Source: Escherichia phage vB_EcoM_JNE01
Length of the DNA: 64,000 bases
Reading direction: 5' to 3' (one strand)
Sequence record: OR670491
This document shows positions 2,179 through 55,339 of this stretch, in pieces (position 1 is the first letter of the stretch; each line of letters opens with the position of its first letter). Both the position numbers and the translations under genes were made by a program. Under the pieces are notes generated by a model. It worked only from the letters and a program-made list of their open reading frames with translations, had not been told where the DNA came from and ran no database searches.

Positions 2179-2180
2179 TT

Positions 2181-2597: not shown

Positions 2598-3105
2598 GTG
2601 CACTAAGGTAATCTTGAAGATTGCTGAAATTTTCAGTACTTTATTGAGCGATGGAAAGATTACAGATGATCTGGTTCTTCCATACCCGTGGAAATTTTCT
2701 AAATTTTCTATATTTTATAAATTAGAATACAAAGAACATGCAGTACTGGAGTTTAATCCTAAAGCTGATTTCATTGAGAATAGTACACTGTTCGGAAAGA
2801 GTGGGTGCTATACATCGGACTTCAAAAAGATTACTACGCATATTCGTCCTTCTCCAGAAGAAAACGAGTTCCATTCATTTCTGTATCCTGAATTTAAGTT
2901 AACTGAAGAACTACTATTTCAGTACTCATTATTGTTCGAAGATGTACAAGATTTAGAGTTCTATAAAGAGTTAGTAGAAACTTTTAAGAATGTGAACCTT
3001 AAAAAAGATATTCTTATATTCTGGTTCATGGAGTATATTTCGAAGGATTTGCTAGATGAGTTTCTTCTAAATATGACAGCAATTAAGGAGAAGTTATATG
3101 CTTGA
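2572..3105 (+). CDS. hypothetical protein (177 aa)
   Basis: Long ORF. Confidence 0.5.
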   Translation: MQSMKDNLECTKVILKIAEIFSTLLSDGKITDDLVLPYPWKFSKFSIFYKLEYKEHAVLEFNPKADFIENSTLFGKSGCYTSDFKKITTHIRPSPEENEFHSFLYPEFKLTEELLFQYSLLFEDVQDLEFYKELVETFKNVNLKKDILIFWFMEYISKDLLDEFLLNMTAIKEKLYA

Positions 3106-3571
3106 CATTTTAGGTAATATTGATACAGTAAACTATTTCGTACAAGATGCATTGGTTGGGATTACGTCTAAGCCATTGCAGGTTCGCAACAATTTCCATC
3201 AGGGTGATGGATACATTGTGGACATTACTGAACCGAAAAAGAATGTATTCAATGTTAACATTGCAACAACAGGTCGTAACAATATCGCACGAATTATCAT
3301 TGACAAGAATGAAATTGTTCTTCGTTACAATGCTAAGTTCATGATGTTCTTCAAGAGTAAGACTGACATGTTCAGTACTAATCTCTTTGATGAACCATTT
3401 AAATTAGAAGATATCGAAGCAGTATTCTTTACTCAGAGTACGTGCTTTAAGTTCAGAGATGTAGAATTCAGTCCAGATGTAATGACTGAAACTTTACAAA
3501 TGCTAAGGATTATCTATTATGGGTTTAATGAGTTTGCACAAGAACGAAACCAGGTTAACAACTGTAGATGA
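3098..3571 (+). CDS. hypothetical protein (157 aa)
   Basis: Long ORF, start overlaps previous stop. Confidence 0.5.
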   Translation: MLDILGNIDTVNYFVQDALVGITSKPLQVRNNFHQGDGYIVDITEPKKNVFNVNIATTGRNNIARIIIDKNEIVLRYNAKFMMFFKSKTDMFSTNLFDEPFKLEDIEAVFFTQSTCFKFRDVEFSPDVMTETLQMLRIIYYGFNEFAQERNQVNNCR

Positions 3572-3977
3572 AACAATCGAGGCAGTACTGGCGAATCTTA
3601 GCTCCAAAAGGGATTACTGGTACAAAGGTATCCGTCTGTATCGTTTAACTGATCGTCACAATCAGGTTACGAATCAGTACGGTACACAGCAAGTCAAGTT
3701 CACTGCCTCAAAACGTAACACAGGGTTTGAAATTTCATGTGTAGTGTTAAATCTAAGTAAAAAACTTCTTGAATGCAATGAAGATTGTGCTATAATGTAT
3801 GCATCTGGTAACGAAGAGATCAAGATCGATTACAGTACACTAGATGAAATTGACTTCTTTCAGTACGAATGCATTGGCATTCAGACTCTAGGAGTTTCTC
3901 ATGATAAACTGAAGAAACTAATTCATACATTAAAAGGTATAATTGAACATGCAAGTAACTCCGCGTCTAAAGCTTAA
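3519..3977 (+). CDS. hypothetical protein (152 aa)
   Basis: Long ORF. Confidence 0.45.
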   Translation: MGLMSLHKNETRLTTVDETIEAVLANLSSKRDYWYKGIRLYRLTDRHNQVTNQYGTQQVKFTASKRNTGFEISCVVLNLSKKLLECNEDCAIMYASGNEEIKIDYSTLDEIDFFQYECIGIQTLGVSHDKLKKLIHTLKGIIEHASNSASKA

Positions 3978-4452
3978 TTTAGAAAAAATTGCTGATTATC
4001 TTCGTACTAACAATATGGAACATAGTCTTTCGATTACAAGTGACCATATCCAATGTAGTACTAATGATTATACTGTACTGTTCGGGTTTCATAGCCTACG
4101 TTTGTCAGTAGTAAATAATCATGATGATACAGCAATTGTCATTACACCTTGTGATGTACTGAACAATGATGGTGAAGTACTTCACAAGAAACAAACCGTA
4201 TTCCATATCTTCAGGGGTGATGAGCCACAAGCATTGGAATACGATACACTGAACGTTGATAGTGGTGAATTGTTCCAGTTGGGTTTAGTACATGATTGTA
4301 CTTTCATGGATAACCGAGTAATTCTTCCTTTGTTGTTGAATATTCTGGTTAACCTTACAACATCTTCAATCCGACACTTCAACGATTCTATTTTAGTACA
4401 GGCGATGATAAACGTTTCAGAGGCAATCGAGGAATACAAAGTCGCCAGTTAA
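3943..4452 (+). CDS. hypothetical protein (169 aa)
   Basis: Long ORF. Confidence 0.5.
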   Translation: MNMQVTPRLKLNLEKIADYLRTNNMEHSLSITSDHIQCSTNDYTVLFGFHSLRLSVVNNHDDTAIVITPCDVLNNDGEVLHKKQTVFHIFRGDEPQALEYDTLNVDSGELFQLGLVHDCTFMDNRVILPLLLNILVNLTTSSIRHFNDSILVQAMINVSEAIEEYKVAS

Positions 4453-4492
4453 CCAATGCACAGGGAGTGCGATAAAGGATCAAGGATAGATC

Positions 4493-4966
4493 ATGGAGAC
4501 GAAAACTGTTGAGAACGGAAAGATAGATGACATTTTAGAATTGGACGCATTTAAAGTTCATGATATAATGTTCAATGTTAAAGACATTATTCAGTGTCTT
4601 TTCTTATGTAGCAAAACTATGCATGACTACTTTCACAACCCAAATACTAACATCTTTATACTTACTATTAGTACTGAAAACTCTTTCATCATGGGTATGC
4701 CTATGAGTACTAATGAAAAGTACATTGATAGTGTAATCCGTAATAATGAGAACATAACCCCACAATCTGAAGTGCATAAGAAGAAAAATACTTATACCAT
4801 TAAAGATGATAAAATTATGTTATGTTGTACTAAGGGATTTATTTTGGATAATTTTAAAGTGAAAGATAGTTATCATGATTTCAAAATATCTGAAAAGCAA
4901 ACTAATGTAGTTTTATATGCCACCGATATTGAAAGCCTAACAGTTAAAGATCCTGATTTGGAGTAA
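4493..4966 (+). CDS. hypothetical protein (157 aa)
   Basis: Long ORF. Confidence 0.5.
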   Translation: METKTVENGKIDDILELDAFKVHDIMFNVKDIIQCLFLCSKTMHDYFHNPNTNIFILTISTENSFIMGMPMSTNEKYIDSVIRNNENITPQSEVHKKKNTYTIKDDKIMLCCTKGFILDNFKVKDSYHDFKISEKQTNVVLYATDIESLTVKDPDLE

Positions 4967-4968
4967 TT

Positions 4969-5100
4969 ATGGCTAAAAATGTAAACAACTTCGTTCAGAA
5001 ACACATGAATGAGTTTAACAAACCTCAAACCCATGTGGATCGCAAAAAAGCGATGAAGAATGGAAAAACAAAACACAAGTCGAGATATATTCTCGACTAA
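4969..5100 (+). CDS. small basic protein (43 aa)
   Basis: ATG 3 nt after upstream stop; lysine-rich MAKNVNNFVQKH...; not in ORF track (<60 aa). Confidence 0.35.
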   Translation: MAKNVNNFVQKHMNEFNKPQTHVDRKKAMKNGKTKHKSRYILD

Positions 5101-5119
5101 TTTTTTGCCTGGAGAAAGT

Positions 5120-5953
5120 ATGAAAGAATTTGATTACAAAAGTAAGTCAGTACTGGAATACATTGAATTACTAAATTCTAAAAATATTCCATTCGATGAT
5201 ACCAAGCTCCTTGGAAATGGAGATGAAAATTCATATAGTACTGAAAACTATGTAATCATTATTTCAAATGCAGCACCAGATATTGACATTACAGTACATA
5301 AGAAAAATAATGCCGCAGTGTTTATGTATACTCAAGATAGTAAATCAGAGTACTTACATTTCAGGGATATGAATTACTACAAAGAGAATGGTGAATTTAT
5401 ATTAAAATACAATATACTAAAGAATATCGAATTAAAAAAAGCACGATACTTTGATGGTGCTTATGACGTTAAAAGTTCAGATAAGCTTTGTATATTCACC
5501 ATGCATAAAAATATAGAAAAAGACAATGGATGGACTGAATTTGAAACTAAGTTCGATGAACAGAAAGTTTCTAATTTGTCAATACAAGAACGTTATGAAG
5601 GTTCAGATGTAGTGTGCAGTGCTGCTTACTTTCGTGCATTTGATAACACAACGAAACGTATGCAAATGCAAAACATTGACATTACGTTCAATGAAGGGTA
5701 TAGTACTGTTACTATTTCTTCAGGATATCGAAACAAGTTTACATTTGAGGTAGCAGTTCCAGACGGGTCAATTCTACACATATTTGACCCTGAATATATG
5801 TTCCAAGTTGAATTAACACTTGACACAGAGCAGTATGATAAATTACAATTTATTAGAAATTCAATCCAAGAAAAATTGGAATTATACCACTTACTAGGTG
5901 GAAAGAATCACAAAGCAACAATAGCATTACAAAATATCAAAAGTAAAAGGTAG
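5120..5953 (+). CDS. hypothetical protein (~277 aa)
   Basis: ORF; ATG 5120 preceded by GGAGAAAG; track start 5060 overlaps small upstream ORF. Confidence 0.5.
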   Translation: MKEFDYKSKSVLEYIELLNSKNIPFDDTKLLGNGDENSYSTENYVIIISNAAPDIDITVHKKNNAAVFMYTQDSKSEYLHFRDMNYYKENGEFILKYNILKNIELKKARYFDGAYDVKSSDKLCIFTMHKNIEKDNGWTEFETKFDEQKVSNLSIQERYEGSDVVCSAAYFRAFDNTTKRMQMQNIDITFNEGYSTVTISSGYRNKFTFEVAVPDGSILHIFDPEYMFQVELTLDTEQYDKLQFIRNSIQEKLELYHLLGGKNHKATIALQNIKSKR

Positions 5954-5972
5954 TTCAAGGAGAGGATTTAGT

Positions 5973-6266
5973 ATGGATACTAAATTTACAATAAAGTTTC
6001 TAGATGAGCCATGTATTCCATATATTGGTGACAGGTTCAAGCCTTATGGTGCGAAGGAAGTTACGCATCCTGATGGCAAAACAATATATTTGGCCCCAGC
6101 GTCTTATGAGCGAGCAGTTGAAATGCTTATCATGAATTCTAAGTATTGCAAAGACAAATATATTAGTTACTTATACAATGAACATGTGTTAGACTTCAAT
6201 GACGAAAACATGTTTGTACTGGTAGTTTCAGATTTTAGTACTTGGCACGAACATCTGTTGTACTAA
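5973..6266 (+). CDS. hypothetical protein (97 aa)
   Basis: ORF with GGAGAGG upstream. Confidence 0.5.
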   Translation: MDTKFTIKFLDEPCIPYIGDRFKPYGAKEVTHPDGKTIYLAPASYERAVEMLIMNSKYCKDKYISYLYNEHVLDFNDENMFVLVVSDFSTWHEHLLY

Positions 6267-6335
6267 AATAAATTGTGGACATTTAAATTCCTTATGATAT
6301 AATGTTCGCATCTTTTTTGATAAACGGAGATATAC

Positions 6336-6722
6336 ATGAATACAAGTTCAGTTCTAAAAGCGATTGGCGGTGTCCTTCTAATTGAAGTTCTAGGTGAGTC
6401 AAAACTCTGCTGCGTAGAAGACATGAAGAGTACTAAATTCTTCAGTACTGGTCAAATCTTCAATGCGATTCGCGTACTGAATGATAAGACTGTTGAAGAC
6501 TACGGCAAGGTTTGGCCTCAATACCGAAACCAAGATGGTGAAATCAGTACTGATTGGAAAACCTTAGAAGCAGTTCGTGAAAGCTGTAATAGCGATTGGG
6601 AATTCGTTATTGAAGTATGTGACCAACTACAAGAAGACGTTCCTGATGTTATCGAACGTAAAGAAGTACAAGCACAACTTGAAAAGTTCCGTCATGGTAC
6701 ACTACCATACGATCTTATCTAA
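6336..6722 (+). CDS. hypothetical protein (128 aa)
   Basis: ORF preceded by AAACGGAGA. Confidence 0.5.
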   Translation: MNTSSVLKAIGGVLLIEVLGESKLCCVEDMKSTKFFSTGQIFNAIRVLNDKTVEDYGKVWPQYRNQDGEISTDWKTLEAVRESCNSDWEFVIEVCDQLQEDVPDVIERKEVQAQLEKFRHGTLPYDLI

Positions 6723-6774
6723 TCTGCGATTTATCAAAAACATCTAATTAACATTATATAAAAAGGAATTTAAA

Positions 6775-7077
6775 ATGGAAGACAACGGAATGAAATTTGA
6801 CATGTTTGAAGGTGTACCAGAGTACGATTTCACTCGAATTGAAGAAGGTGAACAATCTGAAGTAGTTAGTGTTACACTAAAAGCTGATTCCAAAAAGAAA
6901 CCAGCAGAGCGTCGTGCTCGTTCTCAAGAAGAATATGAAACCTTCATCGAGAGCGTACACTATGAAACGTTCTATACTAAAGATGGTGCACCATATGAAG
7001 TTCGCGTTACAGTACTGAAGCCTGAAGTGAATCCACTTGAGAACCTTAAACCAGTTTACTGTTGGGCTAGTCATTAA
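6775..7077 (+). CDS. hypothetical protein (100 aa)
   Basis: ORF preceded by AAAGGAA; terminator downstream. Confidence 0.5.
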   Translation: MEDNGMKFDMFEGVPEYDFTRIEEGEQSEVVSVTLKADSKKKPAERRARSQEEYETFIESVHYETFYTKDGAPYEVRVTVLKPEVNPLENLKPVYCWASH

Positions 7078-7086
7078 TAGTCAAGA

Positions 7087-7114
7087 GGCTGGGAGATAAT
7101 CCTGGCCTTTTTTA
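7087..7114 (+). terminator. rho-independent terminator (wobble-containing stem)
   Basis: GGCTGGGA...TCCTGGCC hairpin then TTTTTTATT. Confidence 0.45.
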
Positions 7115-7128
7115 TTCAGAGGATTTAA

Positions 7129-8082
7129 ATGAAATTATACCTAATTCCATGTTATGATATTGAAGATTACAATTACGCGGAAGATAGCGAAGGTGGTAAT
7201 CACGCTTCCGATATGAATGTATTCAGCGTAAGTACTCATAAGCATGAACGTTATACTAACTTTAGTACATTTCTTCAATATAATACTTTTGAAAATTTGA
7301 CATTTCGCCAGCGTTACAATGCTTACGAATACCAACTAATTGATATTTCAGATGATCTAACTTTTCAATTCATGCTATTAGGTCTAAAGGATTTCGATTT
7401 CATTGCGTATAATCATAAAACTAAGAAGATCTATGTAGGTAATAATTCATATCGTATTGCAGGATTAGCATCTGATCCTAGTGAAGAAGAACCAGATCAA
7501 GCTAATGCTTCAAGTTCGACTTCATTAGCGGGTCGTCGTCGTGCACAATCAAAACATAATTCTTCGTATGGTGGTCGTAGTAATAGACCATCACAGCGTA
7601 TGTTTACGTTCAATTCACCACAAGAAGAACCAGTACCATACGATGAAGAAGATCAAGAAGAAGTTCAGATTCGTATTGACAGTACTAATGGATACGATGA
7701 AATTAAAAAAGAATTAATGGTTTACATGGAAGATATCTACTACAAGATGTTCACTAAAACTGCCATCCATTTACGTAGTTCAGGTAGACATATCATCGGT
7801 GAACAGTCTAATAGTCTGTTTAGTGATGATGGATATTCGTCTGTGTATGACCCAAATGCAGTGCGTAACGCAAATCCAGTAGGTTACAAACGTACTAATT
7901 CCTCTTATGATGAAGCACTACAATTGACCACTGAAGAGTTTGGTTTTTTGTTTGAATCATACTTGAACGATGATGAATTGTGGATTAATACACAAAAGAA
8001 AATCCATCATAGACACAAAGAATGCATTCGTGCTTATACTTGTGATGCATGGAAAAAGTTCACAGAATGTGAGACAAAATAA
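7129..8082 (+). CDS. hypothetical protein (317 aa), acidic/Ser-rich central region
   Basis: Long ORF. Confidence 0.55.
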   Translation: MKLYLIPCYDIEDYNYAEDSEGGNHASDMNVFSVSTHKHERYTNFSTFLQYNTFENLTFRQRYNAYEYQLIDISDDLTFQFMLLGLKDFDFIAYNHKTKKIYVGNNSYRIAGLASDPSEEEPDQANASSSTSLAGRRRAQSKHNSSYGGRSNRPSQRMFTFNSPQEEPVPYDEEDQEEVQIRIDSTNGYDEIKKELMVYMEDIYYKMFTKTAIHLRSSGRHIIGEQSNSLFSDDGYSSVYDPNAVRNANPVGYKRTNSSYDEALQLTTEEFGFLFESYLNDDELWINTQKKIHHRHKECIRAYTCDAWKKFTECETK

Positions 8083-8134: not shown

Positions 8135-8757
8135 AATCCTGAAAGGTTCCATAAGGAAATGATTAAGACCTAATCCACTCGAAAAGTAGAGGGTAGTTGA
8201 GTAGTCCTTTCAGTACGAACAGCAGAAGAAACCCGTTAGATGTTGGCATAGTTTGAACCACTCACGGCAATGCGGCTGTATAAAGAACTCCGATAAGCAC
8301 ACAGAGAGTTCCTAGATAGACATATAAGGATCGCACCTTACGAGATTTGCTAAGGGAGATTTCACTTTGAAACGCGGTCGTAATTTATACAATATAGTTG
8401 CGTCCAAAATTTGTGAAATCAAATACAAGTACTGTTCATATGGTATTTGTATTATGTGTCGGGATGTTTAAGACCGACGACCGTTGCTACAAGAACCGCA
8501 ATAGAGAGAAACAGAGCAACCCGCTTTCGCCCCAGTACTGGGAATTTGTGATATGAATATGTGAAGACCATCAGCGTCAAACTTTTTGTTCTTTCCCCTG
8601 CGGGGGGATGAAATATGTTCAAACAAATCCCGTCAATATTAATTAAACTACTAATAAAGCTGAATTAGACATGCGAAGCGTGTATAATTCTACCGATTTT
8701 TATTGAGTGCTAACGAAATAAAAGTCGTGTACATTCATTGATGTTTCCATAGGAATA
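8135..8757. other. ORF-free, GC-elevated region; candidate structured ncRNA or origin/regulatory region
   Basis: No ORF >=60 aa on either strand across ~620 bp in an otherwise gap-free genome; several local hairpins incl. palindrome CCCAGTACTGGG (8531-8542). Confidence 0.35.
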
Positions 8758-9300
8758 ATGATGTCTTCAAGAAAATCAAGTGTAAGTATTGTGTATAAGT
8801 CAAGTAATTTTTTGGATTGTAATGAACCTCAAGACTTTGAGAGTTTTAGTGGTTTTCAAATTATCAGAGAACGAGGTAAGCTCTCTTATATCAGAGAACT
8901 ACAAGACGGAATTGAGATTACATCTATTAAATTCAGACCTACACAAATACCCACAATCCTCAAAGCACAATATGGTAATTACTTCGAAGAGAGATACAAC
9001 GGGAACACTATTAGTTCTAAGTGTCACTTAATCAACGGAGATTTAGAAGGAGAGTACAGAAAGTATAGCCCCGATGGAACGTGCATTGGCGTTAAATATT
9101 TCTGTTCAGGAGTCGATGTAACCCAGGAGATCATTGACTTTTTGAAATTAAATTGCACAGTACTGACAATACATGAGTATAAGTTCACGGAAGAAGAAGA
9201 GTTTGTACTTATGGTCAGATACGGTTCACATTTTAAGTTTTACTATGAATATAACATTGACAGTAGTACTTTTGATAATATAGTACTTAACTGTCTATAA
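8758..9300 (+). CDS. hypothetical protein (180 aa)
   Basis: Long ORF after non-coding region. Confidence 0.55.
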   Translation: MMSSRKSSVSIVYKSSNFLDCNEPQDFESFSGFQIIRERGKLSYIRELQDGIEITSIKFRPTQIPTILKAQYGNYFEERYNGNTISSKCHLINGDLEGEYRKYSPDGTCIGVKYFCSGVDVTQEIIDFLKLNCTVLTIHEYKFTEEEEFVLMVRYGSHFKFYYEYNIDSSTFDNIVLNCL

Positions 9301-9316
9301 TCAAAGGATTGATAAA

Positions 9317-9844
9317 ATGAGTGAAAAGGATTCTACTCAAACAAATAAACATTCAGTACACTTCAGTACTGGAAAGGATAACTGGACTACACCGAAGGAA
9401 TTATTTGAAGATTTGGATGAAATCTGGGGATTTACATTAGATGCTGCTTGTGTTAAAGAAACAGCACTATGTGAGAAGTACTTCACACCAGAAGATGATG
9501 CACTTTCACAGGATTGGGGTAAGAATATTTGCTGGCTCAACCCACCCTATAGTGATTTGAAAACTTGGTTATCTAAGGCGGTGGATGCATACAATAATGG
9601 TGCAACAGTAATGATACTAGTACCTTCAAGAACTGATACTATTGCATTTCAACAGTACGCAGCTAAGGTATGTGATTGTGTATGTTTCATTAAAGGTAGA
9701 TTGCGTTTTGGTATTCCTGAAGAACCTGAAAAGAAAACTGATTCAGCCCCCTTCCCTAGTTGCTTGATAGTACTGGATAAGTACTTGACTCCCGCTAAAC
9801 TAAATTATCTTAAATCTCTTGGATTGGTGATGAAGAACGTATGA
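9317..9844 (+). CDS. dam: DNA N6-adenine methyltransferase (phage Dam-like)
   Basis: Motifs FTLDAAC...WLNPPYS (NPPY catalytic motif) typical of phage Dam-family MTases. Confidence 0.7.
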   Translation: MSEKDSTQTNKHSVHFSTGKDNWTTPKELFEDLDEIWGFTLDAACVKETALCEKYFTPEDDALSQDWGKNICWLNPPYSDLKTWLSKAVDAYNNGATVMILVPSRTDTIAFQQYAAKVCDCVCFIKGRLRFGIPEEPEKKTDSAPFPSCLIVLDKYLTPAKLNYLKSLGLVMKNV

Positions 9845-10380
9845 AAGAAGCTTGTGTAGTAACATTCGGGAGAGTTAACCCGATACATAAAGGACATGGA
9901 TTAGTGTTTGAAAAGGCACAATCCCTACAAGAACAGTACGATGCGGACTTAAAGATCTTCCTAAGTACCAGTACTGATAATGTTAAAAACCCCTTACCAC
10001 CTGAATTGAAAATGTATTACACAGAGGGATTCTATCCTAATGTGCAAGAAAACATTTGCATTGAGGACAATTTATTTGATATAATGAGAGAGTTAGATGG
10101 GAAGTACATGGATGTGTTGTTCATCTGTGGCTCTGACAGGATTAACTCTTTCCAAAAAACTCTTGACAGCTACAATGGTAAGCTGTATAATTTCTGTAAT
10201 ATTAAGGCAATCCAAGCAGGTATTGACCGTAATGTTAGTAAGTACAGTTCAACACAAATGCGTTCCTTTGCTAAGAATGATGACTTCGAAAGCTTCAGTT
10301 CATTTTTACCAGGGAATGATATCGACTTAAAACAAAAACTCTTTGAAGATGTAGTAAAATACATGAGGAAAGAATTATGA
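9841..10380 (+). CDS. nucleotidyltransferase, NMN/NaMN adenylyltransferase-like
   Basis: GRVNPIHKGH (HxGH-type) and C-terminal SSTQMR (SxTxxR-like) motifs. Confidence 0.5.
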   Translation: MKEACVVTFGRVNPIHKGHGLVFEKAQSLQEQYDADLKIFLSTSTDNVKNPLPPELKMYYTEGFYPNVQENICIEDNLFDIMRELDGKYMDVLFICGSDRINSFQKTLDSYNGKLYNFCNIKAIQAGIDRNVSKYSSTQMRSFAKNDDFESFSSFLPGNDIDLKQKLFEDVVKYMRKEL

Positions 10381-10667
10381 CAGTACTGTTCAAAACAAGC
10401 CCATTACTATGGGAACAAAATGAAGCAGCAGGATATCGTAAAGTTCATGTAGAGTACGAGGGTAACACTATCCTTGCTTTCGTTGCGAATCGTACTTTCG
10501 GTAAATGGACTTCACTGCTTATCCCAATGGGGTACACTTACAATCGTTCTGAAGTAACTGCTATCTCTAAGCTGTACAATAATGCTCCGGTAATTATGGA
10601 TCTACTTAGTAAAGACGATTTGACACATGAAGATGTGATTAAATTTCTGGCAACCCTGAATGCATGA
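10377..10667 (+). CDS. hypothetical protein (96 aa)
   Basis: ORF, ATGA overlap with upstream gene. Confidence 0.5.
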   Translation: MTVLFKTSPLLWEQNEAAGYRKVHVEYEGNTILAFVANRTFGKWTSLLIPMGYTYNRSEVTAISKLYNNAPVIMDLLSKDDLTHEDVIKFLATLNA

Positions 10668-10689
10668 GATTGAACTAACAGGATACTTT

Positions 10690-10938
10690 ATGCAAGAATC
10701 CATGATAGAAACTTTCCACAATTTCGAGGCACTTGAGAGTACTCAAATGTGGCAGGTAAAATCAATTTTTGGCGTTTTCAGTACAGAACACCAAGAACTA
10801 TTGAATAAGTTATCGAGTACTGGTATACTGTGTACAATAAAGATTGGTGTTCATGTCCACAAAGGGTATGTCATTTATTTTGACAAATCCAGATATTTTT
10901 ATATTGTAAAGGAGCAATACATTGACAAATACAAATAG
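10690..10938 (+). CDS. hypothetical protein (~82 aa)
   Basis: ORF; internal ATG 10690 chosen (track start 10660). Confidence 0.45.
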   Translation: MQESMIETFHNFEALESTQMWQVKSIFGVFSTEHQELLNKLSSTGILCTIKIGVHVHKGYVIYFDKSRYFYIVKEQYIDKYK

Positions 10939-11539
10939 TAATACTTATTTCCGCTACCTACGTCTCGGCCTGTCTCTACGTCCAATTCGTGGTAAATGTG
11001 ATTCTTTAGCGGACTTAGATTACGCTTATGCATTGCATTGTGATGGTGTACAATATGTCCTGGGTGACTTCGGTACGTTTGAAGAAACCAATGACAGTAC
11101 TGAACTAAAGACTGGTATTGATAATCTCAATCTCATTACCAACAGTTCACGTCATGATATTGTTCTTGAAATTCAAAACTTCATTGAACAAAATACTGGT
11201 AAGCGTACTTGGTCATATGTCGGTACTGATACCCAACTCTCTGTAGCGTTCGGTAATGACGAGGGTTATGTAGCCCAACTTATTATGGACTTTGAGAACG
11301 AAGAGAAGTTCCTTGAGTTCAAGGATAAGATTATGCAATCCTTGATTCATATGGGTATTCAAGAAGAGAATATGCCAGAGATTAAAGATATTGAAGAGTT
11401 TGTTTTAATCCCATCTGATGAGAAGTATGATGCGATGTTTACCAATCTCAAAGTTCCAGGAGTTATCGTGGAGTTCTTTGATGATGGTGATGACAGCATT
11501 TACATCGACCTAGATGACGATGGTGACGATGACGAATAA
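10922..11539 (+). CDS. hypothetical protein (205 aa), acidic C-terminus
   Basis: Long ORF ending DLDDDGDDDE; terminator downstream. Confidence 0.55.
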   Translation: MTNTNSNTYFRYLRLGLSLRPIRGKCDSLADLDYAYALHCDGVQYVLGDFGTFEETNDSTELKTGIDNLNLITNSSRHDIVLEIQNFIEQNTGKRTWSYVGTDTQLSVAFGNDEGYVAQLIMDFENEEKFLEFKDKIMQSLIHMGIQEENMPEIKDIEEFVLIPSDEKYDAMFTNLKVPGVIVEFFDDGDDSIYIDLDDDGDDDE

Positions 11540-47274: not shown

Positions 47275-47604
47275 ATGTGCGATTTAAAACCAATAGTTGT
47301 TAACAAATACAAAGAACAGTATGATGTGTACATTGGTCGTGGGTCGAAATGGGGAAATCCATTCACCCACATTAAAGACAAGGAAACTAAAGCAGAATTC
47401 ATTGTTGCGACCCGCGAAGAGTCAATTGAGAAGTTCAGAGACTATATTCTGGAACGTATCGAAAAGGGTGAAGTTCAAATTGATGAACTCCTTGAACTCG
47501 CTGGGAAACGTCTTGGTTGCTTTTGTAAGCCCAAATCATGTCATGGTGATGTTCTTGTGGAAATAGTGAGTGCTATACTAGATGAACTATCAGACGATAA
47601 TTAA
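47275..47604 (+). CDS. DUF4326-like protein (YIGRGSKWGNPF motif)
   Basis: ATG 47275 after AAGG; motifs YIGRG..WGNPF and LGCFCKPKSCHGDVL; family assignment from memory. Confidence 0.45.
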   Translation: MCDLKPIVVNKYKEQYDVYIGRGSKWGNPFTHIKDKETKAEFIVATREESIEKFRDYILERIEKGEVQIDELLELAGKRLGCFCKPKSCHGDVLVEIVSAILDELSDDN

Positions 47605-48052
47605 AGACGATTTAGTTAACGGGGAGGGAGTACGATGCTCTCTCTTCGTGAGTGGTTGTAGCCACGGATGTGATGGGTGTTTCAATGAAGAAGCATGGGA
47701 TTACAGAAGTGGATCAAAATTCAGTACTGCTGAAGTTGAAGTTATTCTTAAAGAGTTAGATAAGCCATATGTTACCGGATTATCTTTACTTGGGGGAGAT
47801 CCTCTTATGCCAAAGAATATCAGTACTGTTATTGATTTATGTAAAACTGTAAAAGAATTACATCCTACCAAAACAATTTGGTGCTGGAGTGGCTATACTT
47901 TAGAAGAGATTAAACTAAATCATTCTAAGGATATTCTTCAGTACTTAGATGTTTTAGTAGATGGTAAGTTTATTGAATCCGAAAAGAATCTAAGATTACC
48001 TTTTAGGGGTTCTAATAACCAACGTATTCTTCACAAAGACAAAGATTTTTAA
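47582..48052 (+). CDS. nrdG: anaerobic RNR activating protein (radical SAM)
   Basis: GEGVRCSLFVSGCSHGCDGCFN (CxxxCxxC cluster). Confidence 0.8.
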   Translation: MNYQTIIKDDLVNGEGVRCSLFVSGCSHGCDGCFNEEAWDYRSGSKFSTAEVEVILKELDKPYVTGLSLLGGDPLMPKNISTVIDLCKTVKELHPTKTIWCWSGYTLEEIKLNHSKDILQYLDVLVDGKFIESEKNLRLPFRGSNNQRILHKDKDF

Positions 48053-48057
48053 AATGT

Positions 48058-48082
48058 GGCTTCCCTAGTGGAAGCCTTTTTG
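48058..48082 (+). terminator. rho-independent terminator
   Basis: GGCTTCC-CTAGT-GGAAGCC then TTTTT. Confidence 0.7.
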
Positions 48083-48156
48083 CGTTCAAAGGAACTGTAG
48101 GTACGCGAATATGTGCATAAATACATGAACAAATATCTATAATAAAAGGGATATAT

Positions 48157-50856
48157 ATGTCAAAGAAAATATATGGTGGCTTAGATGTCACACATAATGT
48201 TACAGTGAAAGGGAAACGTACTGTTCAAGGTATCAATGATCAAGTTTTTGATTCCAATGGTAACATGGAACTTGATACTTATACTAAAGAAGAAATTCTT
48301 GACGTAATTAGTATGATGCCTTTGTCACATTATGGTACACATAACTATCTACCTGCTGGTGTAAGTGGTGACTTCAACGGAGCATCAGAAAACACATCAC
48401 AGCGTAGAAACAAAATTCTATTAGAAGATGACGGAACATTAGTAATGTTGCGTGCTGGTACAAACGGTAGTGTGGAAGGTCTATTCTACTCTTACCTAGC
48501 GAACGCATTAACTATTGAAGATATGGGTCGTACCGTGAATACTGGTAAGCAGTATCAACCAGGGTTTTTGGGTTCCACAAAAGTTGCTTTCGGTTTATAT
48601 AACACTGATAGTAATATAATGATTGGTCAATATAAAGATACAACTAATAGCACTACTGGTTATTTTGTATCTATTACAAACAATACACTTGATGATACTC
48701 AGCACTCAGGATTTATCATTAATCAGTACACTGACCTTTCACCACAAGGTAACATTGAATATGCAATGATGGCAGAAGATGGTTCAATCTATGTGTTTAG
48801 TTTAGATGTTGCAGATAATAAAATGCACATGATTGTACAGCGTATTGTGTTTAATATTAGTGCTGGTACATACACTACATCACGTATATCTGGATGGACT
48901 ACAAAAACATTCTACAATACAACTATCAGTGCTAATACTAATATAGTATTAACCAACAGAACTTATTCAACTGATATTGTAGATAAACCATATGCTCTTG
49001 TACCAACTAACCTACGTGGTATTGGTATATACATGACTTCATATGATTTATATGTTGCACAACAGCCTGGTACTCAGAACTTCCGTTTCCGTTTAAATGG
49101 GGACTTATGGGCGACAATGGCAGACTATAATACACGTCCACAACATAGTTTTAGTTTCAATTTCAATATGAGTACTAAACAATGTACGTTAGATACTGGC
49201 AATGACATTGGTTCATTCCAAGCACCTATCGTTATTACAAATACTGGGACTCAATTAGTTGCTACTGGTAATGCTCTAAACAAAGATGATTTTTATAACC
49301 ACAGTGGTGCACGTAACATTTATAGTGGATATTACTATTCAGTAGAAGGTGTTGCTTTCTGTACAATATGTCCAAACCTAGCAGAACCATTACACATGGA
49401 AAAAGGTCATTACCCAGCACAATCTGTTTATAGCATGATAAATGTTAGAGCAGTGAGTTGTACAGATTTTCGTGATGGAAGAGTTGGTCCGACATTTGGT
49501 TCAGCAGTAGGGTCATATATCAACGGTGTTGAATTGTTACCTGATAACAGTACTAAACAGTTCTCTCGTGCTTCCGGTACAGGTTCTTACCAACCATCAT
49601 ATGCAGTGCATAAGAGTACTCCTAACTTTACGTTCAAATCACTTTCAATGGGGACTATTCAGGGTTATGAGCCAACAGCAGAACGTGCAAACGTAGCTGA
49701 TACGACCAACAACCGAGTATTCATTAGTTCAATTTCAGGAAGTACAGTTACAACTAATGGTGGTGTACTAATATGTGGTCAACGTTACTCACAGTCGTTA
49801 TCATATGATAAGTACATGAATGGTACTAACGTAATTAGTGTTACTCAATCAGTACTTGACAACTTCAGAACAGCAGAGTATGCTAAAGTTGCTAGTTCAT
49901 GGAACCTATCAAGTGCATCGGGTAAAGACATGTCGTTGTTTGTTCCACAGCAATCTGACATTCCAGCGTTTGTGTTTCTCAGTTCAGTGACGAACAATAA
50001 CCAGAACTATATTCGTGTTGCAGAAGTTAATGTTAATACAAGAGTAGGGAACATTACTAGTATTACATTTAAACGTTTAGTTTATGAAAACGTTCATGGT
50101 GATAACTTCGTTTCGAATACATCAGGTTCATTCTCTTCTTCATCTGTTGGTATGACAATTTATGATGGTGGTTCATTCTATTTCTTAGGTGGTTCTGATC
50201 CATTAACACATAATACTATCGGTAACACAAATACACATATGTTCCGTGCTTATGTTACTAAATCCACTGCAACTATTGATAGCTTCATTATTGCGGGTGG
50301 TCACGCCAGTTATGAACAAGGTGCTCAACCAGCAGCGTTGCCTGGATTGGGTTTTGGTATTTTTGCTGCAATTGACTATTCTAACAAAATGACATTCGTA
50401 CCTTTTGGAACAACTATTGCTGATTATAACGCATGGACACAGAAAGCGACTGCAATAAACTTAGTATCACAAGACGTTGCACAAGGTTTTATCGTGTACT
50501 TCACCGAAGAAACACCAGTAATACTATCAGGTAAATCATTTACTCTACCTATTTCGAATATTGATTTAACAACTGTAAAAGCTAATCCAGCCAATACGAC
50601 GTTTTATCTTTATATTAAAATGGAGCAAGGTAATGTTAAATACCACATAACTACTGAAGTTATTTCAGAAGCTGGTACTTCTGCATATAACGTATTTTGG
50701 ATTGGAACAATTAAAACTAACTCTCTTCAAATTGAAACAGTAAATGTTGAAAAACGTTCTCGTTTGGATATATTTGGTGCATCACTAGAAGCAGCAGGTT
50801 CTTCATTCCCAGTAAGTTATGGTTTACCATCACAAACAGGAACTATCAACTGGTAA
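48157..50856 (+). CDS. putative tail fibre/receptor-binding protein, paralog 1 (899 aa)
   Basis: Large Ser/Thr/Gly/Asn-rich protein; N- and C-terminal blocks shared with 50869 and 51473. Confidence 0.4.
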   Translation: MSKKIYGGLDVTHNVTVKGKRTVQGINDQVFDSNGNMELDTYTKEEILDVISMMPLSHYGTHNYLPAGVSGDFNGASENTSQRRNKILLEDDGTLVMLRAGTNGSVEGLFYSYLANALTIEDMGRTVNTGKQYQPGFLGSTKVAFGLYNTDSNIMIGQYKDTTNSTTGYFVSITNNTLDDTQHSGFIINQYTDLSPQGNIEYAMMAEDGSIYVFSLDVADNKMHMIVQRIVFNISAGTYTTSRISGWTTKTFYNTTISANTNIVLTNRTYSTDIVDKPYALVPTNLRGIGIYMTSYDLYVAQQPGTQNFRFRLNGDLWATMADYNTRPQHSFSFNFNMSTKQCTLDTGNDIGSFQAPIVITNTGTQLVATGNALNKDDFYNHSGARNIYSGYYYSVEGVAFCTICPNLAEPLHMEKGHYPAQSVYSMINVRAVSCTDFRDGRVGPTFGSAVGSYINGVELLPDNSTKQFSRASGTGSYQPSYAVHKSTPNFTFKSLSMGTIQGYEPTAERANVADTTNNRVFISSISGSTVTTNGGVLICGQRYSQSLSYDKYMNGTNVISVTQSVLDNFRTAEYAKVASSWNLSSASGKDMSLFVPQQSDIPAFVFLSSVTNNNQNYIRVAEVNVNTRVGNITSITFKRLVYENVHGDNFVSNTSGSFSSSSVGMTIYDGGSFYFLGGSDPLTHNTIGNTNTHMFRAYVTKSTATIDSFIIAGGHASYEQGAQPAALPGLGFGIFAAIDYSNKMTFVPFGTTIADYNAWTQKATAINLVSQDVAQGFIVYFTEETPVILSGKSFTLPISNIDLTTVKANPANTTFYLYIKMEQGNVKYHITTEVISEAGTSAYNVFWIGTIKTNSLQIETVNVEKRSRLDIFGASLEAAGSSFPVSYGLPSQTGTINW

Positions 50857-50868
50857 GGGATTACAATT

Positions 50869-51456
50869 ATGGCTTATATTATAAGATCAGATATTGAAGC
50901 AATGACAACAATTAAGTCCAGGGGATTAGACACTGGACTTTCATTAACAGACATTGATGACGTATCTTATTCAACTGATGTTAACGGGGAATGTACGTTC
51001 CCTGTATTAACCTCAGATGAAATCGACTACATTATGAATGGTTTACCACTGTCACAGTACGGTGAACTATATGATTCAACCAGTCTAGGTGTTACATTTT
51101 CTGGTTATGATTTGAAATTTGGACGAATTGTTCCGGCGTTTATTGGTGGACATTTATATGATTACCCAGTCAGTACTGTTAAAGCTAAAACAGTAACGTC
51201 AGGTACACACACACAATATGTGTATGCTACGTTAGTACTGGGTGTACCATTATATGAAATTTCAGCGACCGCCATTGCTGAAACACAAATTCAAATGTTC
51301 ATTGGTACAATAACAGTTGGTACAGCAGGAATAACAGCAGCAAACATAGAACGCGTTTCAAGGTTCAGTACATATAGACCTAGTACTACTCAGAAAGGTT
51401 CGTCCTTCCCAGTCAGTACAGGAAATCCGGCACAAACTGGTTCTATAGGCTGGTAA
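50869..51456 (+). CDS. short paralog of the tail-fibre-like family (195 aa)
   Basis: Contains only the shared N-terminal (LPLSQYGE) and C-terminal (RFSTYRPSTTQKGSSFPVSTGNPAQTGSIGW) blocks. Confidence 0.4.
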   Translation: MAYIIRSDIEAMTTIKSRGLDTGLSLTDIDDVSYSTDVNGECTFPVLTSDEIDYIMNGLPLSQYGELYDSTSLGVTFSGYDLKFGRIVPAFIGGHLYDYPVSTVKAKTVTSGTHTQYVYATLVLGVPLYEISATAIAETQIQMFIGTITVGTAGITAANIERVSRFSTYRPSTTQKGSSFPVSTGNPAQTGSIGW

Positions 51457-51472
51457 TTAAAGGGAAATTAAC

Positions 51473-54199
51473 ATGTCATCACAAAGAATTATTGGTAACG
51501 CCAGTATATTAGGCAACTTGGCAATTGCTGGAAAAAATGCAATGCGTACTTTTAATGGAGTCTCACCAGACTCCAATACTGGTATTGTCGATTACCCAAT
51601 ATACAAACGTTCAGAAGTACAGAAAATTCTTGATATGATGCCTATTTCGCGTATAGGGGAGATGGACTATCTCCCTTTGAACGTAAATGGTTCATATGAA
51701 GGTGCAACTTCAAACTCAGCTACATATCGTATTCAGCCAACTATCATTGAAGATGATGGTACTGGTGTAGTAATACGTGCAGGCACAAACGGAAGTAAAA
51801 ATGGTTACTATTACTCGTTTATACGAGATTTAAGAAACATTACTTCTTTTACTCAGGATATGGTTATATCAACTACAACTGAATATAAACCATCTATTCT
51901 AAGTACTGGTGAAAATATTATTCGTTTCATCGGCACAAATGGTTATGAACTTTTAGTTTCATATACCTCCGGCTCTAATTATGTTTTCACATTAACAAAC
52001 GGTACATTCAACGAAGTATCACATATTCATGCTAAGTTAGCTGAATCAAGATTCGGTACTGACAAACCATTATATGCTCATGTGGTTGGTTCGAATATTT
52101 TTGTTTGGTGCAAAGACACCACGGTAGCAAACGGTGGATTAGCATATACATTGTATACAGTTTCCAGAAGTAATATAGTTGATGGTACTATGACTTCTTT
52201 TGCTAAAGTGACTGGTTTTTCTGGTCAAACAGTAAGGAATACAAACTATAGTGCATCAAATAATATTAGAGTTTTTGACCGTTACTGGTCTACAACTACT
52301 GGTACTGATTCACTATATGATATTGTTAGTCCAGTGAACAGTGTTGAATATATTGATTATAATGATTATAATATCCAAGCAAATGCCAGTACTGACAACT
52401 CTAAAATACGAGTTACTTTATACATAACTCCACGTTTCAAGACTCCATTAGCAATTTCAACTGTTCAGCCAACTGGTATTAGTTTTGTTTATAATATTAG
52501 TTCAAAGGTTATGACATTAGATGGGTCAGCAAGAGCACCAGCAACAGCAGCATACACTAATAATAATTTTGTTGTTACCAACCCATTCTCAATTTCAATG
52601 AGTAACTTTACTGGTTCAACTAATAGTTCATCTTCATTAGGTGACTGCGGTTCAATCTGTCAAACATCAGATGGTCTTGTTTTTACATCAAAATCAAGAT
52701 GGATATCAGATGAAACCTATGGTTTACAACTATATAAAGTACAAGGTACTCCATACGATAGTTGGGTCGCTAGTACTCGTAAGTCCAGTGATTTAACTAA
52801 CGTAAATGTTAAACCAACATATGGTTCTGCTGTAGGGGAAAACTTACTTGGTGTTAGATTTATTGATAAAAGAAAAGTACTTCTTGCATGTTCCAGTACT
52901 AGCGATGGTGTTACTTATGGCTATGACAGTACTGTATCCTCTGATATAGGAGACTCTCCAGTATACACATATAATAGTGTTGTAACTGGGTCTACAATTG
53001 AAGGTTTTGCTCCTGAAGCTGGACGTGAATATCATGGAAATAGTTATGATTATACCGCTATGGTTTCTTTGATTGCGGCTGATGGAACAGTAAAAACATA
53101 TGGTTCTTCATTTATAGAAGGAATAGCCAAAGATGCAAATGGATTATTAGATCCAGATACAATGACATTCTCAGGAAAATACACAATGAGTAATACTGCT
53201 TTGATGAATCTCAAACAATCGATCATTGATAGTGCAGATATTACTGGGACCAGTACTTCTAGGATTTGTTTTTATTATGTACCTGATAATACATTCTCAA
53301 GATCTATGGCAGTTGTTTGTACATACAATCCAACTAACAACCAAGGTTATGCTATTTTTGCAGAAGTAAATGCTGTTCTAAGTGGTTCAGAAATTACAAG
53401 TGCATCAGTATATACAACCAGATATGAAGTACTTGGTAGTATATCAGGAATCCAAAGTAATGCTCTAATGAAGCGTTGTACTGGATTAACAGTTGCAAAA
53501 TACTCTGGATTCAATTATCTTGGTATTGATACTATCCATCAGTTCACAGTTCCTGGTGATGTTAGTCAGAAAATGATGATAGCTAAAGTTAAAAATGGTG
53601 ATATCAGTACTAACCGTTATTTTACAACCTATCATGTTAGCAACGGTTCAGCTTTCCAGAGTGGTGCTATCCCTGGTGGTGGATTCGGTTATTATAACTT
53701 CAGTAATTCCGACTTACAGACAAAAGCAGTTCTTTCAGTATTCGGGACAACAGAAGCCCAGATGGATGGTTTGATTGCTGGTACTGGTGCAGTACTGAAC
53801 AATTATGTTGTAGTTTCTCAAGATGTAGCTGCTGGTTTCAACGTGTACTTCACCCGTGAAGTTCCGGTGTTCCTTGCTGGTATGTTCGACCGTCTGGTAG
53901 TTCAGACACTTGACCTAACAACCATCAAGAGTAATCCAGCTAACAGTACTTTCTACATTTACATAGAAATGAACCGAAGTACTGGTAAGGCTTCTTATGT
54001 TGTGAGTACTATACTCCTTGATGAAACGTTGACACGAGCCTTCATAGGAACTATAATTACTGGTGCTACTAACATATCATCAATTGAAACAGAAAAAGTG
54101 ACAAGGTTCTTGACCTATCGCCCAAGTACAACAAAACGTGGTTCTGCAATCCCGTCTAGTACTGGCGTACCGTCAGGCACTGGTACACGTTGGAAATAA
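51473..54199 (+). CDS. putative tail fibre/receptor-binding protein, paralog 2 (908 aa)
   Basis: Shared termini with 48157; divergent centre. Confidence 0.4.
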   Translation: MSSQRIIGNASILGNLAIAGKNAMRTFNGVSPDSNTGIVDYPIYKRSEVQKILDMMPISRIGEMDYLPLNVNGSYEGATSNSATYRIQPTIIEDDGTGVVIRAGTNGSKNGYYYSFIRDLRNITSFTQDMVISTTTEYKPSILSTGENIIRFIGTNGYELLVSYTSGSNYVFTLTNGTFNEVSHIHAKLAESRFGTDKPLYAHVVGSNIFVWCKDTTVANGGLAYTLYTVSRSNIVDGTMTSFAKVTGFSGQTVRNTNYSASNNIRVFDRYWSTTTGTDSLYDIVSPVNSVEYIDYNDYNIQANASTDNSKIRVTLYITPRFKTPLAISTVQPTGISFVYNISSKVMTLDGSARAPATAAYTNNNFVVTNPFSISMSNFTGSTNSSSSLGDCGSICQTSDGLVFTSKSRWISDETYGLQLYKVQGTPYDSWVASTRKSSDLTNVNVKPTYGSAVGENLLGVRFIDKRKVLLACSSTSDGVTYGYDSTVSSDIGDSPVYTYNSVVTGSTIEGFAPEAGREYHGNSYDYTAMVSLIAADGTVKTYGSSFIEGIAKDANGLLDPDTMTFSGKYTMSNTALMNLKQSIIDSADITGTSTSRICFYYVPDNTFSRSMAVVCTYNPTNNQGYAIFAEVNAVLSGSEITSASVYTTRYEVLGSISGIQSNALMKRCTGLTVAKYSGFNYLGIDTIHQFTVPGDVSQKMMIAKVKNGDISTNRYFTTYHVSNGSAFQSGAIPGGGFGYYNFSNSDLQTKAVLSVFGTTEAQMDGLIAGTGAVLNNYVVVSQDVAAGFNVYFTREVPVFLAGMFDRLVVQTLDLTTIKSNPANSTFYIYIEMNRSTGKASYVVSTILLDETLTRAFIGTIITGATNISSIETEKVTRFLTYRPSTTKRGSAIPSSTGVPSGTGTRWK

Positions 54200-54205
54200 A
54201 TTTTA

Positions 54206-54234
54206 AGCTCGTCTATTGACGGGCTTTTCTTTTA
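54206..54234 (+). terminator. rho-independent terminator
   Basis: AGCTCGTC-TATT-GACGGGCT (one wobble) then T-tract. Confidence 0.55.
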
Positions 54235-54269
54235 TGTGTATACTGTATGAAAACTGGGAGGTATTTTGT

Positions 54270-54812
54270 ATGAAATTCTTTAAGAAGAAAGACGATTTAG
54301 ATTGGTGTGCGTATGTCCAAGAACGTAAGATTAATAAATGTATTTTTAAATTAATTACTAAAAGTATCTTACTCAAAGAAAGTATCAAAACGGATCAAGA
54401 CCGTAGAGATTTAATCAATTTAAAGTACAAAGTAAGTTCATTTTTCTTTTACAATCTAATGAAAGAAATTGCCACGAGTACAGATCCTGATCGTTGGGAT
54501 GTTGATGTTGACCGATATTACGGTGGGGACATTAGTTTCACTATTCGTGATAGAAAGAAGAATGTATCCATCAACGCGGATTATGATACTGCTGATAATG
54601 TTCAGTTTGATGATCCCAATTTACGAATTAAAGATGAAGAAGTCAGAGTGAGTATTCGCAAAGATTTTGTTAAAACACATTTAGAAAGTCCAGAGAAATT
54701 CATTATGATTTACTTTGTAATGGAGTACGTTAGTGTTACAGAAAATCTAAAGAATTTAAGAAGACTACAAAATGAGCACGAGCTAAAACTATCAGTCAGA
54801 GATTGGTACTAG
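54270..54812 (+). CDS. hypothetical protein, tandem paralog family C (1/3)
   Basis: MKFFKKKDDLDW...DQDRRDLINLKYKV; GGGAGG RBS. Confidence 0.5.
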   Translation: MKFFKKKDDLDWCAYVQERKINKCIFKLITKSILLKESIKTDQDRRDLINLKYKVSSFFFYNLMKEIATSTDPDRWDVDVDRYYGGDISFTIRDRKKNVSINADYDTADNVQFDDPNLRIKDEEVRVSIRKDFVKTHLESPEKFIMIYFVMEYVSVTENLKNLRRLQNEHELKLSVRDWY

Positions 54813-54820
54813 GAGAGAAC

Positions 54821-55339
54821 ATGTTTTTCAAAAAAGACAAAGTGGAAAAAGAAGAGAAGAATTTAAACTTTCTTAATGACATTATCCAAGTCCTTATGAA
54901 AAGTTATCAACTCAAAGATAAAGTACTGAATGATGACGACCGCCGATTGGTTATCGATATTAAGTACAAATTGAGTAAACATCCTTTACTAACTCTAATC
55001 ACAGAGATTGTTAAAGATCCACACGACAGCCGATGGAGATGGATTGAACAGTGTGCTTCCGTTTATTCCACTACTCGTTATGAATTACTTGACACAGTAA
55101 CTGACGTTCAAGTGGGTGTGCGATGCTTTGATATAAAAAACGCAACACGACACAAAAACATCCGAAGTTCTGTTGATTTTAATAGTGATGTATTAGTAGA
55201 AGACGAATCCATCTTTTTATTCTGTTTCTTGCACGGTTTGAATCAAATGTACACTACGATTTCAGTACTGAACCAGCAGCAGAAAAATCTACAAAAACGT
55301 AATGAAATTAAGGATTTATATCAATGTTCAAAATCTTAA
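54821..55339 (+). CDS. hypothetical protein, tandem paralog family C (2/3)
   Basis: MFFKKDKVEK...DDDRRLVIDIKYKL. Confidence 0.5.
   Translation: MFFKKDKVEKEEKNLNFLNDIIQVLMKSYQLKDKVLNDDDRRLVIDIKYKLSKHPLLTLITEIVKDPHDSRWRWIEQCASVYSTTRYELLDTVTDVQVGVRCFDIKNATRHKNIRSSVDFNSDVLVEDESIFLFCFLHGLNQMYTTISVLNQQQKNLQKRNEIKDLYQCSKS

Follow-up and report, generated by a model that had tools for sequence, protein, structure and literature searches.

Three tandem genes of a jumbo coliphage as candidate host-recognition proteins with a conserved anchor and fast-diverging tandem-propeller heads

Escherichia phage vB_EcoM_JNE01 (sequence record OR670491) is represented here by a stretch of 64,000 nucleotides (nt), referred to below as the window, which comes from an Asteriusvirus (121Q/PBECO4-like) jumbo coliphage and contains three adjacent genes that we call A, B and C. 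We consider, with moderate confidence, that A and C encode host-recognition proteins attached to the baseplate, in which a conserved anchor carries fast-diverging tandem-propeller heads, and that B is a retained head-less derivative with the same anchor. An original prediction, made from the letters of the sequence, had described the three genes as tail-fibre-like paralogs with shared ends and swapped centres. The three tandem open reading frames (ORFs) on the plus strand were recovered exactly where it had placed them, with the predicted lengths in amino acids (aa):

48157–50856, plus strand: gene A, ORF of 899 aa
50869–51456, plus strand: gene B, ORF of 195 aa, the middle paralog, with the propellers deleted
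51473–54199, plus strand: gene C, ORF of 908 aa, sharing the architecture of A

The gaps between them are 12 nt (A to B) and 16 nt (B to C). This region shares 98.7% identity with Escherichia phage Turkey5 and is about 74% identical to 121Q, PBECO4, phAPEC6 and about 30 further Asteriusvirus jumbo phages; in all of these matched records, including that of Turkey5, the three genes are entered as 'hypothetical'. Full-length profile matches were obtained to phrog_3573 for A (E 1e-241) and C (E 3e-226) and to phrog_26864 for B (E 2e-72), and every PHROG family matched by the three proteins is labelled 'unknown function'.

Pairwise alignment of the three proteins gave terminal similarity far above chance, in agreement with the N- and C-terminal blocks that had been predicted. 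A and C are collinear over their full length with few gaps (BLASTP E 6e-68). B aligns with C across the C-terminal 119 aa (E 2e-20) and weakly at the N-terminus (E 0.003), and with A at E 8e-16 with a second match at E 0.003. In bins of 50 aa, the identity between A and C is highest near the ends (44% at aa 51–100 and 39–46% at aa 751–899) and falls to 10–26% in the centre. The centres compared alone (aa 130–749 of A and aa 135–759 of C) still showed 24% identity over 535 collinear aa (E 7e-13), so the notion of swapped centres was not supported; by these alignments the two centres are diverged homologues and not unrelated cassettes.

The origin of the array can be read from a phage of another genus, Pectobacterium phage CBB, which carries three full-length paralogs at the same place and in matching order (CBB_147, CBB_148 and CBB_149; 902, 916 and 916 aa). 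The best match of A is CBB_147 (44.7% identity) and that of C is CBB_149 (37.5% identity), both over the full length. The centres match these positional orthologues at E 8e-123 and 2e-85, compared with 7e-13 for the neighbouring paralog. Because each centre is far nearer to its positional orthologue in CBB than to its paralog, the array is an ancient triplication that predates the genus split and has kept its positional orthology.

The middle gene aligns with CBB_148 in two pieces: aa 1–79 of B correspond to aa 1–80 of CBB_148 (E 1e-12), and aa 79–195 correspond to aa 798–916 (E 8e-32). Judged from this alignment, B is what was left of the middle paralog once about 717 aa had been lost in frame, and the earlier statement that it keeps only the termini was borne out against A, C and the ends of CBB_148. 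The short form of B occurs throughout the Asteriusvirus-like phages of E. coli and Salmonella, and three long genes are retained in the CBB, GAP32, Eneladusvirus and XbC2 lineages. The B family comprises 23 clusters of 190–211 aa, with identity down to 42% and 24 invariant positions. The ratio of nonsynonymous to synonymous substitution rates (dN/dS) was 0.13–0.31 for B, 0.13 for A, 0.20 for C and 0.02 for nrdD, values that are rough due to the saturation of dS. These values indicate that B has been kept under purifying selection since the deletion. The possibility that B is a decaying pseudogene was rejected on the basis of the 23 conserved clusters and the dN/dS of 0.13–0.31.

The domains of the three proteins were mapped as follows, with positions in aa of the respective protein:

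A, 1–75: N-terminal block, with a helix at 44–53 and the motif MMPLSHYG..YLP
A, about 85–760: centre, a predicted all-beta tandem propeller
A, about 765–865: predicted shoulder-like beta-sandwich
A, 866–899: conserved C-terminal peptide, ending in ...GSSFPVSYGLPSQTGTINW
B, 1–69: N-terminal block, with a helix at 49–58
B, 70–166: predicted shoulder-like beta domain
B, 167–195: conserved tail, ending in ...KGSSFPVSTGNPAQTGSIGW
C, about 775–875: shoulder-like domain, by homology to A
C, 876–908: tail, by homology to A

The structure of A was predicted with confidence by AlphaFold2 using a 32-sequence alignment (predicted local distance difference test score, pLDDT, 84.1; predicted template modelling score, pTM, 0.78). 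The model is of the all-beta type; some 56 strands fall within aa 85–751, a small beta domain comes next at aa 765–865, and in this monomer aa 1–70 and 869–899 are disordered. Its Foldseek neighbours were tandem propellers (Elp1, Utp17 and GH74) and single propellers, and lectins, glycosidases and sialidases were among the propeller neighbours. The centre of A is likely to comprise two propellers of about six to seven blades each; the blade count, as well as the contact between the N-terminal block and the shoulder-like domain, was derived from the strand count and secondary structure.

The predicted fold of the shared module resembles the shoulders of receptor-binding proteins (RBPs), TssK and tail-fibre anchors, and the small beta domain takes, in the prediction, the beta-sandwich form of the RBP shoulder and the N-terminal domain of TssK. 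The shoulder of p2 and TssK is a trimerising domain that docks on the baseplate, and for this reason an anchor module is the best reading of the block that A, B and C have in common, the long proteins carrying a tandem propeller between the N-terminal block and the shoulder. The resemblance to the p2 RBP (ORF18, 2wzp), the phage 1358 RBP, SPP1 gp22 and the TssK shoulder is one of fold only, at 5–14% identity and with no sequence-profile match in the PDB. The PDB sequence and profile searches with A and the profiles A1 and A2 returned nothing significant, a match to BLIP-II at E 0.17 being discarded as noise, and the Pfam search with A, B and C returned no family. The beta-helix or fibre folds that had been expected were not seen: the model of A is a tandem propeller, with no triple beta-helix, coiled-coil, parallel beta-helix or Pfam domain typical of classical fibres and tailspikes. 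The description 'tail-fibre-like' accordingly fails for the fold, while for the function it is supported by the virion orthologues, the anchor-like fold and the fusions to gp131-N and Gp38 domains described below.

Orthologues of A and C have been detected in purified virions. The A orthologue of phAPEC6, gp323c (98.6 kDa), was identified by 4 peptides with 5.6% coverage (PMC7247149), and the A and C orthologues of phage JP4, JP4_233 and JP4_235, were identified by 2 peptides each (PMC12648861 supplement). The label-free abundances in JP4 were 1.8e6 for JP4_233 and 2.3e6 for JP4_235, compared with 1.9e6 for the portal, 1.3e6 for the 929-aa tail fibre, 1.1e7 for the baseplate wedge and 6.6e8 for the capsid protein (PMC12648861 supplement). 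The abundance of the two proteins is thus some 300-fold lower than that of the major capsid protein and similar to the portal and the tail fibre. This crude measure points to low-copy proteins, with roughly ten to twenty copies per virion. Presence in virions, which the original prediction had named as a check, was therefore confirmed for A (phAPEC6 and JP4) and for C (JP4), and B was not detected.

Two observations on these data sets are added here. The GenBank record of phAPEC6 (MK817115; locus positions 8697–11504) contains intact orthologues of B and C that are not annotated, which tblastn showed to be full length with 62% and 63.7% identity. As they are unannotated, their absence from the virion proteome list of phAPEC6 may be an artefact of the search database. 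CBB_148 and CBB_149 were not counted as detected by mass spectrometry; they are entered in GenBank as 'structural protein', but Table 4 of the CBB paper skips from CBB_144 to CBB_169.

The family reaches Ea35-70-like and phiKZ-like jumbo phages, and the latter provide a link to a known baseplate fibre. RisingSun gp99 and gp100 and EL gp114 and gp115 (about 1170–1190 aa; phrog_7449) contain a complete A-like module, matched by the A1 profile at E 1e-43 to 4e-52; in all four the match is collinear and covers profile positions 51–402 and 682–897, and the phrog_7449 profile itself matches at E 2e-37. These proteins, like A and C, possess the N-terminal block, propellers, a shoulder-like domain and the tail, and occur as paralogs in tandem arrays; their own annotation is that of virion structural proteins. 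They differ from A, B and C in having about 260 additional aa N-terminal to the module, which are homologous to the N-domain of phiKZ gp131 (gp131-N; E 2e-17) and to those of gp133–135, and A and C start at about the equivalent of residue 270 of RisingSun gp99. The EL and RisingSun proteins are functionally uncharacterised too. In phiKZ, the N-domains of gp131, gp133, gp134 and gp135 assemble into a hetero-hexameric base by which twelve fibres are anchored on the baseplate, and the propeller of gp131 lies at the fibre's distal end (2026 virion atlas, PMC13250141). Since a gp131-N-like domain precedes the A-like module in EL and RisingSun, and gp131-N anchors the fibres of phiKZ, the module would in these phages make up the distal portion of a fibre protein on the baseplate.

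The phiKZ proteins gp131–gp135 share several features with A, B and C, namely tandem paralogs with a common anchoring block, differing distal parts and a beta-propeller, which makes them an analogy of design and not members of the family. The A1 and A2 profiles gave E of at least 0.27 against phiKZ gp131–135, showing no homology. The set gp131–gp135 lies at the baseplate periphery, and the fused proteins of EL and RisingSun form the link between it and A, B and C. The crystal structure of gp131C was reportedly determined by Sycheva in 2012. Searches against phiKZ gp26, gp27, gp28, gp129–136, gp145, gp146 and gp157 found no homology either, and the similar length of phiKZ gp27 (898 aa) and A was dismissed as a coincidence. 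Within the gp131–135 array, the small protein gp132 (110 aa; phiKZ locus positions 8811–9143) takes a place comparable to that of the middle gene B here; no homology to B was found. In SPN3US-like phages, as seen in SEGD1 (locus positions 2084–7266), the A-like module is divided between neighbouring genes: one, gp173, combines a gp131-like N-domain with an A-type N-terminal block, and the other, gp172, has a propeller and a shoulder-like domain at aa 659–763 of 1088, followed by about 320 aa more.

Outside these arrays, the B-family profile matched 495 cluster representatives (at 50% identity) in 1.84 billion proteins. Their architectures include stand-alone proteins of 165–250 aa, proteins of about 900–990 aa, proteins of about 1150 aa (EL type) and proteins in which the module is internal or N-terminal. 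In P0212, which belongs to the last of these groups, an N-terminal module is followed by a Big_2 domain and then by the tail-fibre adhesin domain Gp38 (E 2e-16, which passes the threshold of Pfam).

Taken together, A, B and C would be an old tandem family of low-copy virion proteins, most likely located on the periphery of the tail or baseplate, and we infer that they belong with the modular phage RBPs, in which an anchor carries a variable head. The N-terminal block, the shoulder-like beta-sandwich and the C-terminal peptide would form the conserved assembly module, and the tandem propeller would be the exposed, fast-diverging part that probably binds ligands on the host surface, likely glycans. 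The termini may have remained alike because all paralogs must fit one docking site or co-assemble, and the centres would differ through divergence under unequal constraint since the ancient triplication and not through swapping. B lost its propellers through a deletion, in frame, in a common ancestor of the Asteriusvirus-like phages of E. coli and Salmonella and may have been retained as a head-less anchor subunit or an adaptor. A bolder extension, possible but in our judgement doubtful, is that the shared block, standing alone or interrupted, is the anchor of a widespread undescribed class of jumbo-phage RBPs (the 495 clusters above), and that A, B and C co-assemble into a hetero-oligomeric appendage, e.g. 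an A:B:C heterotrimer with two double-propeller heads and one head-less subunit. Such an appendage would parallel the hetero-hexameric base of the phiKZ fibre formed by gp131/133/134/135, although the modules are unrelated.

Several points weigh against host recognition by baseplate-attached A and C. The mass spectrometric support is thin (2–4 peptides, 2–6% coverage), and the B orthologue is unlisted in the virion data of JP4 (PMC12648861 supplement). A profile of the gp131-N-like domain found no match in the Rak2-like regions searched, namely the window and the loci of CBB and 121Q (best E 0.3). Classical RBPs have an N-terminal shoulder and a C-terminal head, whereas in A and C the shoulder-like domain (aa 765–865) comes after the propellers; an N-terminal shoulder with a downstream head was seen only in distant relatives such as P0212. 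Positions that are invariant between the A and C types mostly hold Gly, Ser, Pro or an aromatic residue, and D740 is the sole invariant acidic residue of the propeller region; with so few acidic or catalytic-looking propeller residues conserved, the propellers may either bind ligands or be purely structural.

Other explanations were weighed against the same data. The original prediction had proposed cassette-like exchange of receptor-binding domains. In a full version of that model, the conserved termini would act as recombination anchors, the centres would be swapped among the copies or with incoming cassettes, and B would be an empty or donor cassette. The better conservation of the termini is in keeping with such a scheme, and so is the incongruent history of C, the fastest-evolving of the three genes among the Asteriusviruses. 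In A and B, 121Q goes with UE-S1 (the two are 82–85% identical to each other, and both 57–75% identical to the window), whereas for C the window shares an allele with UE-S1 (81.5% identity) and differs from 121Q (64%); between 121Q and UE-S1, the centre of C is 40–70% identical and the ends are 80–90% identical. However, the C genes of the window and UE-S1 are uniformly about 80% identical along their length, which indicates a replacement of the whole gene and not of the centre only, and C is in this comparison a gene exchanged between related phages as a whole-gene allele. The scheme is further contradicted by the collinear homology of the centres, by the positional orthology to CBB kept since before the genus split, and by B, a conserved coding gene that arose by deletion and not as a donor cassette. 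At the DNA level, the longest in-register direct repeat between the paralogs is 28 nt at 71–79% identity, which leaves no substrate for homologous exchange within the genome. Nor were repeats flanking the variable part found between A, B and C, whether of the cassette, shufflon or diversity-generating retroelement type (recombination sites or template/variable repeats). We therefore regard cassette exchange among the paralogs as very improbable.

A different function for the propellers was also considered. If they were glycoside hydrolases or lyases, A and C would be virion-borne depolymerases degrading capsule, O-antigen or biofilm polysaccharide, an idea suggested by the structural neighbours of the propeller and by RaK2, in which the slot after nrdG holds a tailspike/depolymerase cluster (PMC10253068). 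This branched tail-fibre/depolymerase cluster of RaK2 and phiK64-1 (gp526–534) occupies the same slot downstream of nrdD-nrdG and also comprises several host-recognition proteins, but these are beta-helix tailspikes, mostly on the opposite strand, that are unrelated to A, B and C, and no homologues of A, B or C were found in the 36-kb tailspike region of RaK2. With no Pfam or PDB sequence match and no conserved catalytic signature, D740 being the single invariant acidic residue of the propeller region, an enzymatic role is improbable. We give a similarly low probability to a purely architectural role, in which the proteins would serve as scaffolds at the baseplate periphery, as phiKZ gp26/gp27 do, or form the base of the 'hairy' whiskers of phAPEC6 and CBB, and would take no part in host recognition. 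The phiKZ precedent for large peripheral baseplate scaffolds, the unassigned hair-like appendages of phAPEC6 and CBB, and the low copy number of A and C are compatible with it. Against it, the dN/dS of the centres is about 6–15 times that of nrdD, the identity to 121Q is 64–75% compared with 87% for a neighbouring 931-aa tail protein, C is subject to whole-gene allele exchange, and other phages have the module in fusions with a fibre-anchor domain and with a Gp38 adhesin. A globular double propeller also fits the 119-nm hairs poorly, and the A1 profile has no match to phiKZ gp26, gp27 or gp28.

Asteriusviruses and other Rak2-like jumbo phages are under development against pathogenic E. coli and Salmonella, and their host-recognition apparatus is almost unmapped. 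The present analysis yields three candidate baseplate-attached RBPs with a domain map (conserved anchor and variable tandem propeller), ties A, B and C to the fibre proteins of phiKZ-like phages, and provides a case of a gene, C, exchanged whole between phages. If A and C do act in host recognition, propeller engineering or swaps of the C allele should alter the host range, and the head-less B would be a natural anchor-only subunit. The genes and their virion presence are already known, as 'hypothetical' entries only. As far as the literature was searched, the domain reading, the deletion origin of B, the link to gp131-type fibres and the wide spread of the module are undescribed, and the phiKp24 paper contains nothing on the A/B/C family.

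Upstream of the array, nrdD and nrdG immediately precede gene A. The following signals were read from the sequence around the three genes:

48058–48076, plus strand: terminator-like hairpin directly 3' of the nrdG stop, at the upstream edge of the A-B-C unit
48138–48143, plus strand: TATAAT hexamer 5' of the gene A ATG, a candidate promoter
48145–48150, plus strand: AAAGGG 5' of the gene A ATG, a candidate ribosome-binding site
54205–54226, plus strand: terminator-like hairpin 6 nt past the gene C stop, at the downstream edge of the A-B-C unit

The two hairpins are the only terminator-like sites within positions 47500–54700 (7.2 kb), and a terminator is annotated in the UE-S1 record at the position matching the hairpin at 48058–48076. 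Because the hairpins flank the three genes and no others occur in the 7.2 kb, A, B and C look like a single transcription unit.

Downstream, the annotated tail-fibre genes lie at 58002–61410, 3.8 kb from the array, and encode tail-fibre/tail proteins of 203 aa (phrog_32568) and 931 aa (phrog_2871). The 931-aa protein is 87% identical to 121Q_509, and its orthologues phAPEC6 gp314c and JP4_243 are virion proteins; the counterparts of both tail genes are absent from the syntenic position in UE-S1. Directly 3' of gene C, at 54216–55824, are three small tandem paralogs (about 166–198 aa; phrog_18641 and phrog_7868, of unknown function) that are 34–37% identical to their counterparts in 121Q and UE-S1, compared with 60–95% for the flanking genes, and thus form a hypervariable array. 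A 149-aa ORF at 56222–56671, of which neither 121Q nor UE-S1 has a counterpart at the syntenic locus, is a strain-specific insertion amid conserved genes.

The hexamer AGTACT had been said to be far rarer in A, B and C than in the rest of the window, as a sign of a different origin or constraint, and the counts did not agree with this. The region contains 21 sites in 6043 bp (3.5/kb), compared with 2.9/kb in the window and 17.7 expected; as the count exceeds the expectation, depletion as a sign of different origin was rejected. By gene, A has 4 sites versus 7.9 expected (Poisson P = 0.11), and C has an excess with 14 versus 8.0. AGTACT is the commonest hexamer of the window (187 copies versus 20.8 expected from dinucleotide shuffles; examples range from 236–241 to 63460–63465), and the palindrome is frequently extended to CAGTACTG (48 copies). 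It occurs in each of the three reading frames as well as in non-coding sequence. Its density is 2–3/kb in every Rak2-like locus fetched (121Q, phAPEC6, JP4, UE-S1, CBB and RaK2) and 0–0.27/kb in phiKZ, EL, SEGD1 and RisingSun, the AT-rich phiKZ included. The abundance of AGTACT is a clade-wide signature of Rak2-like loci.

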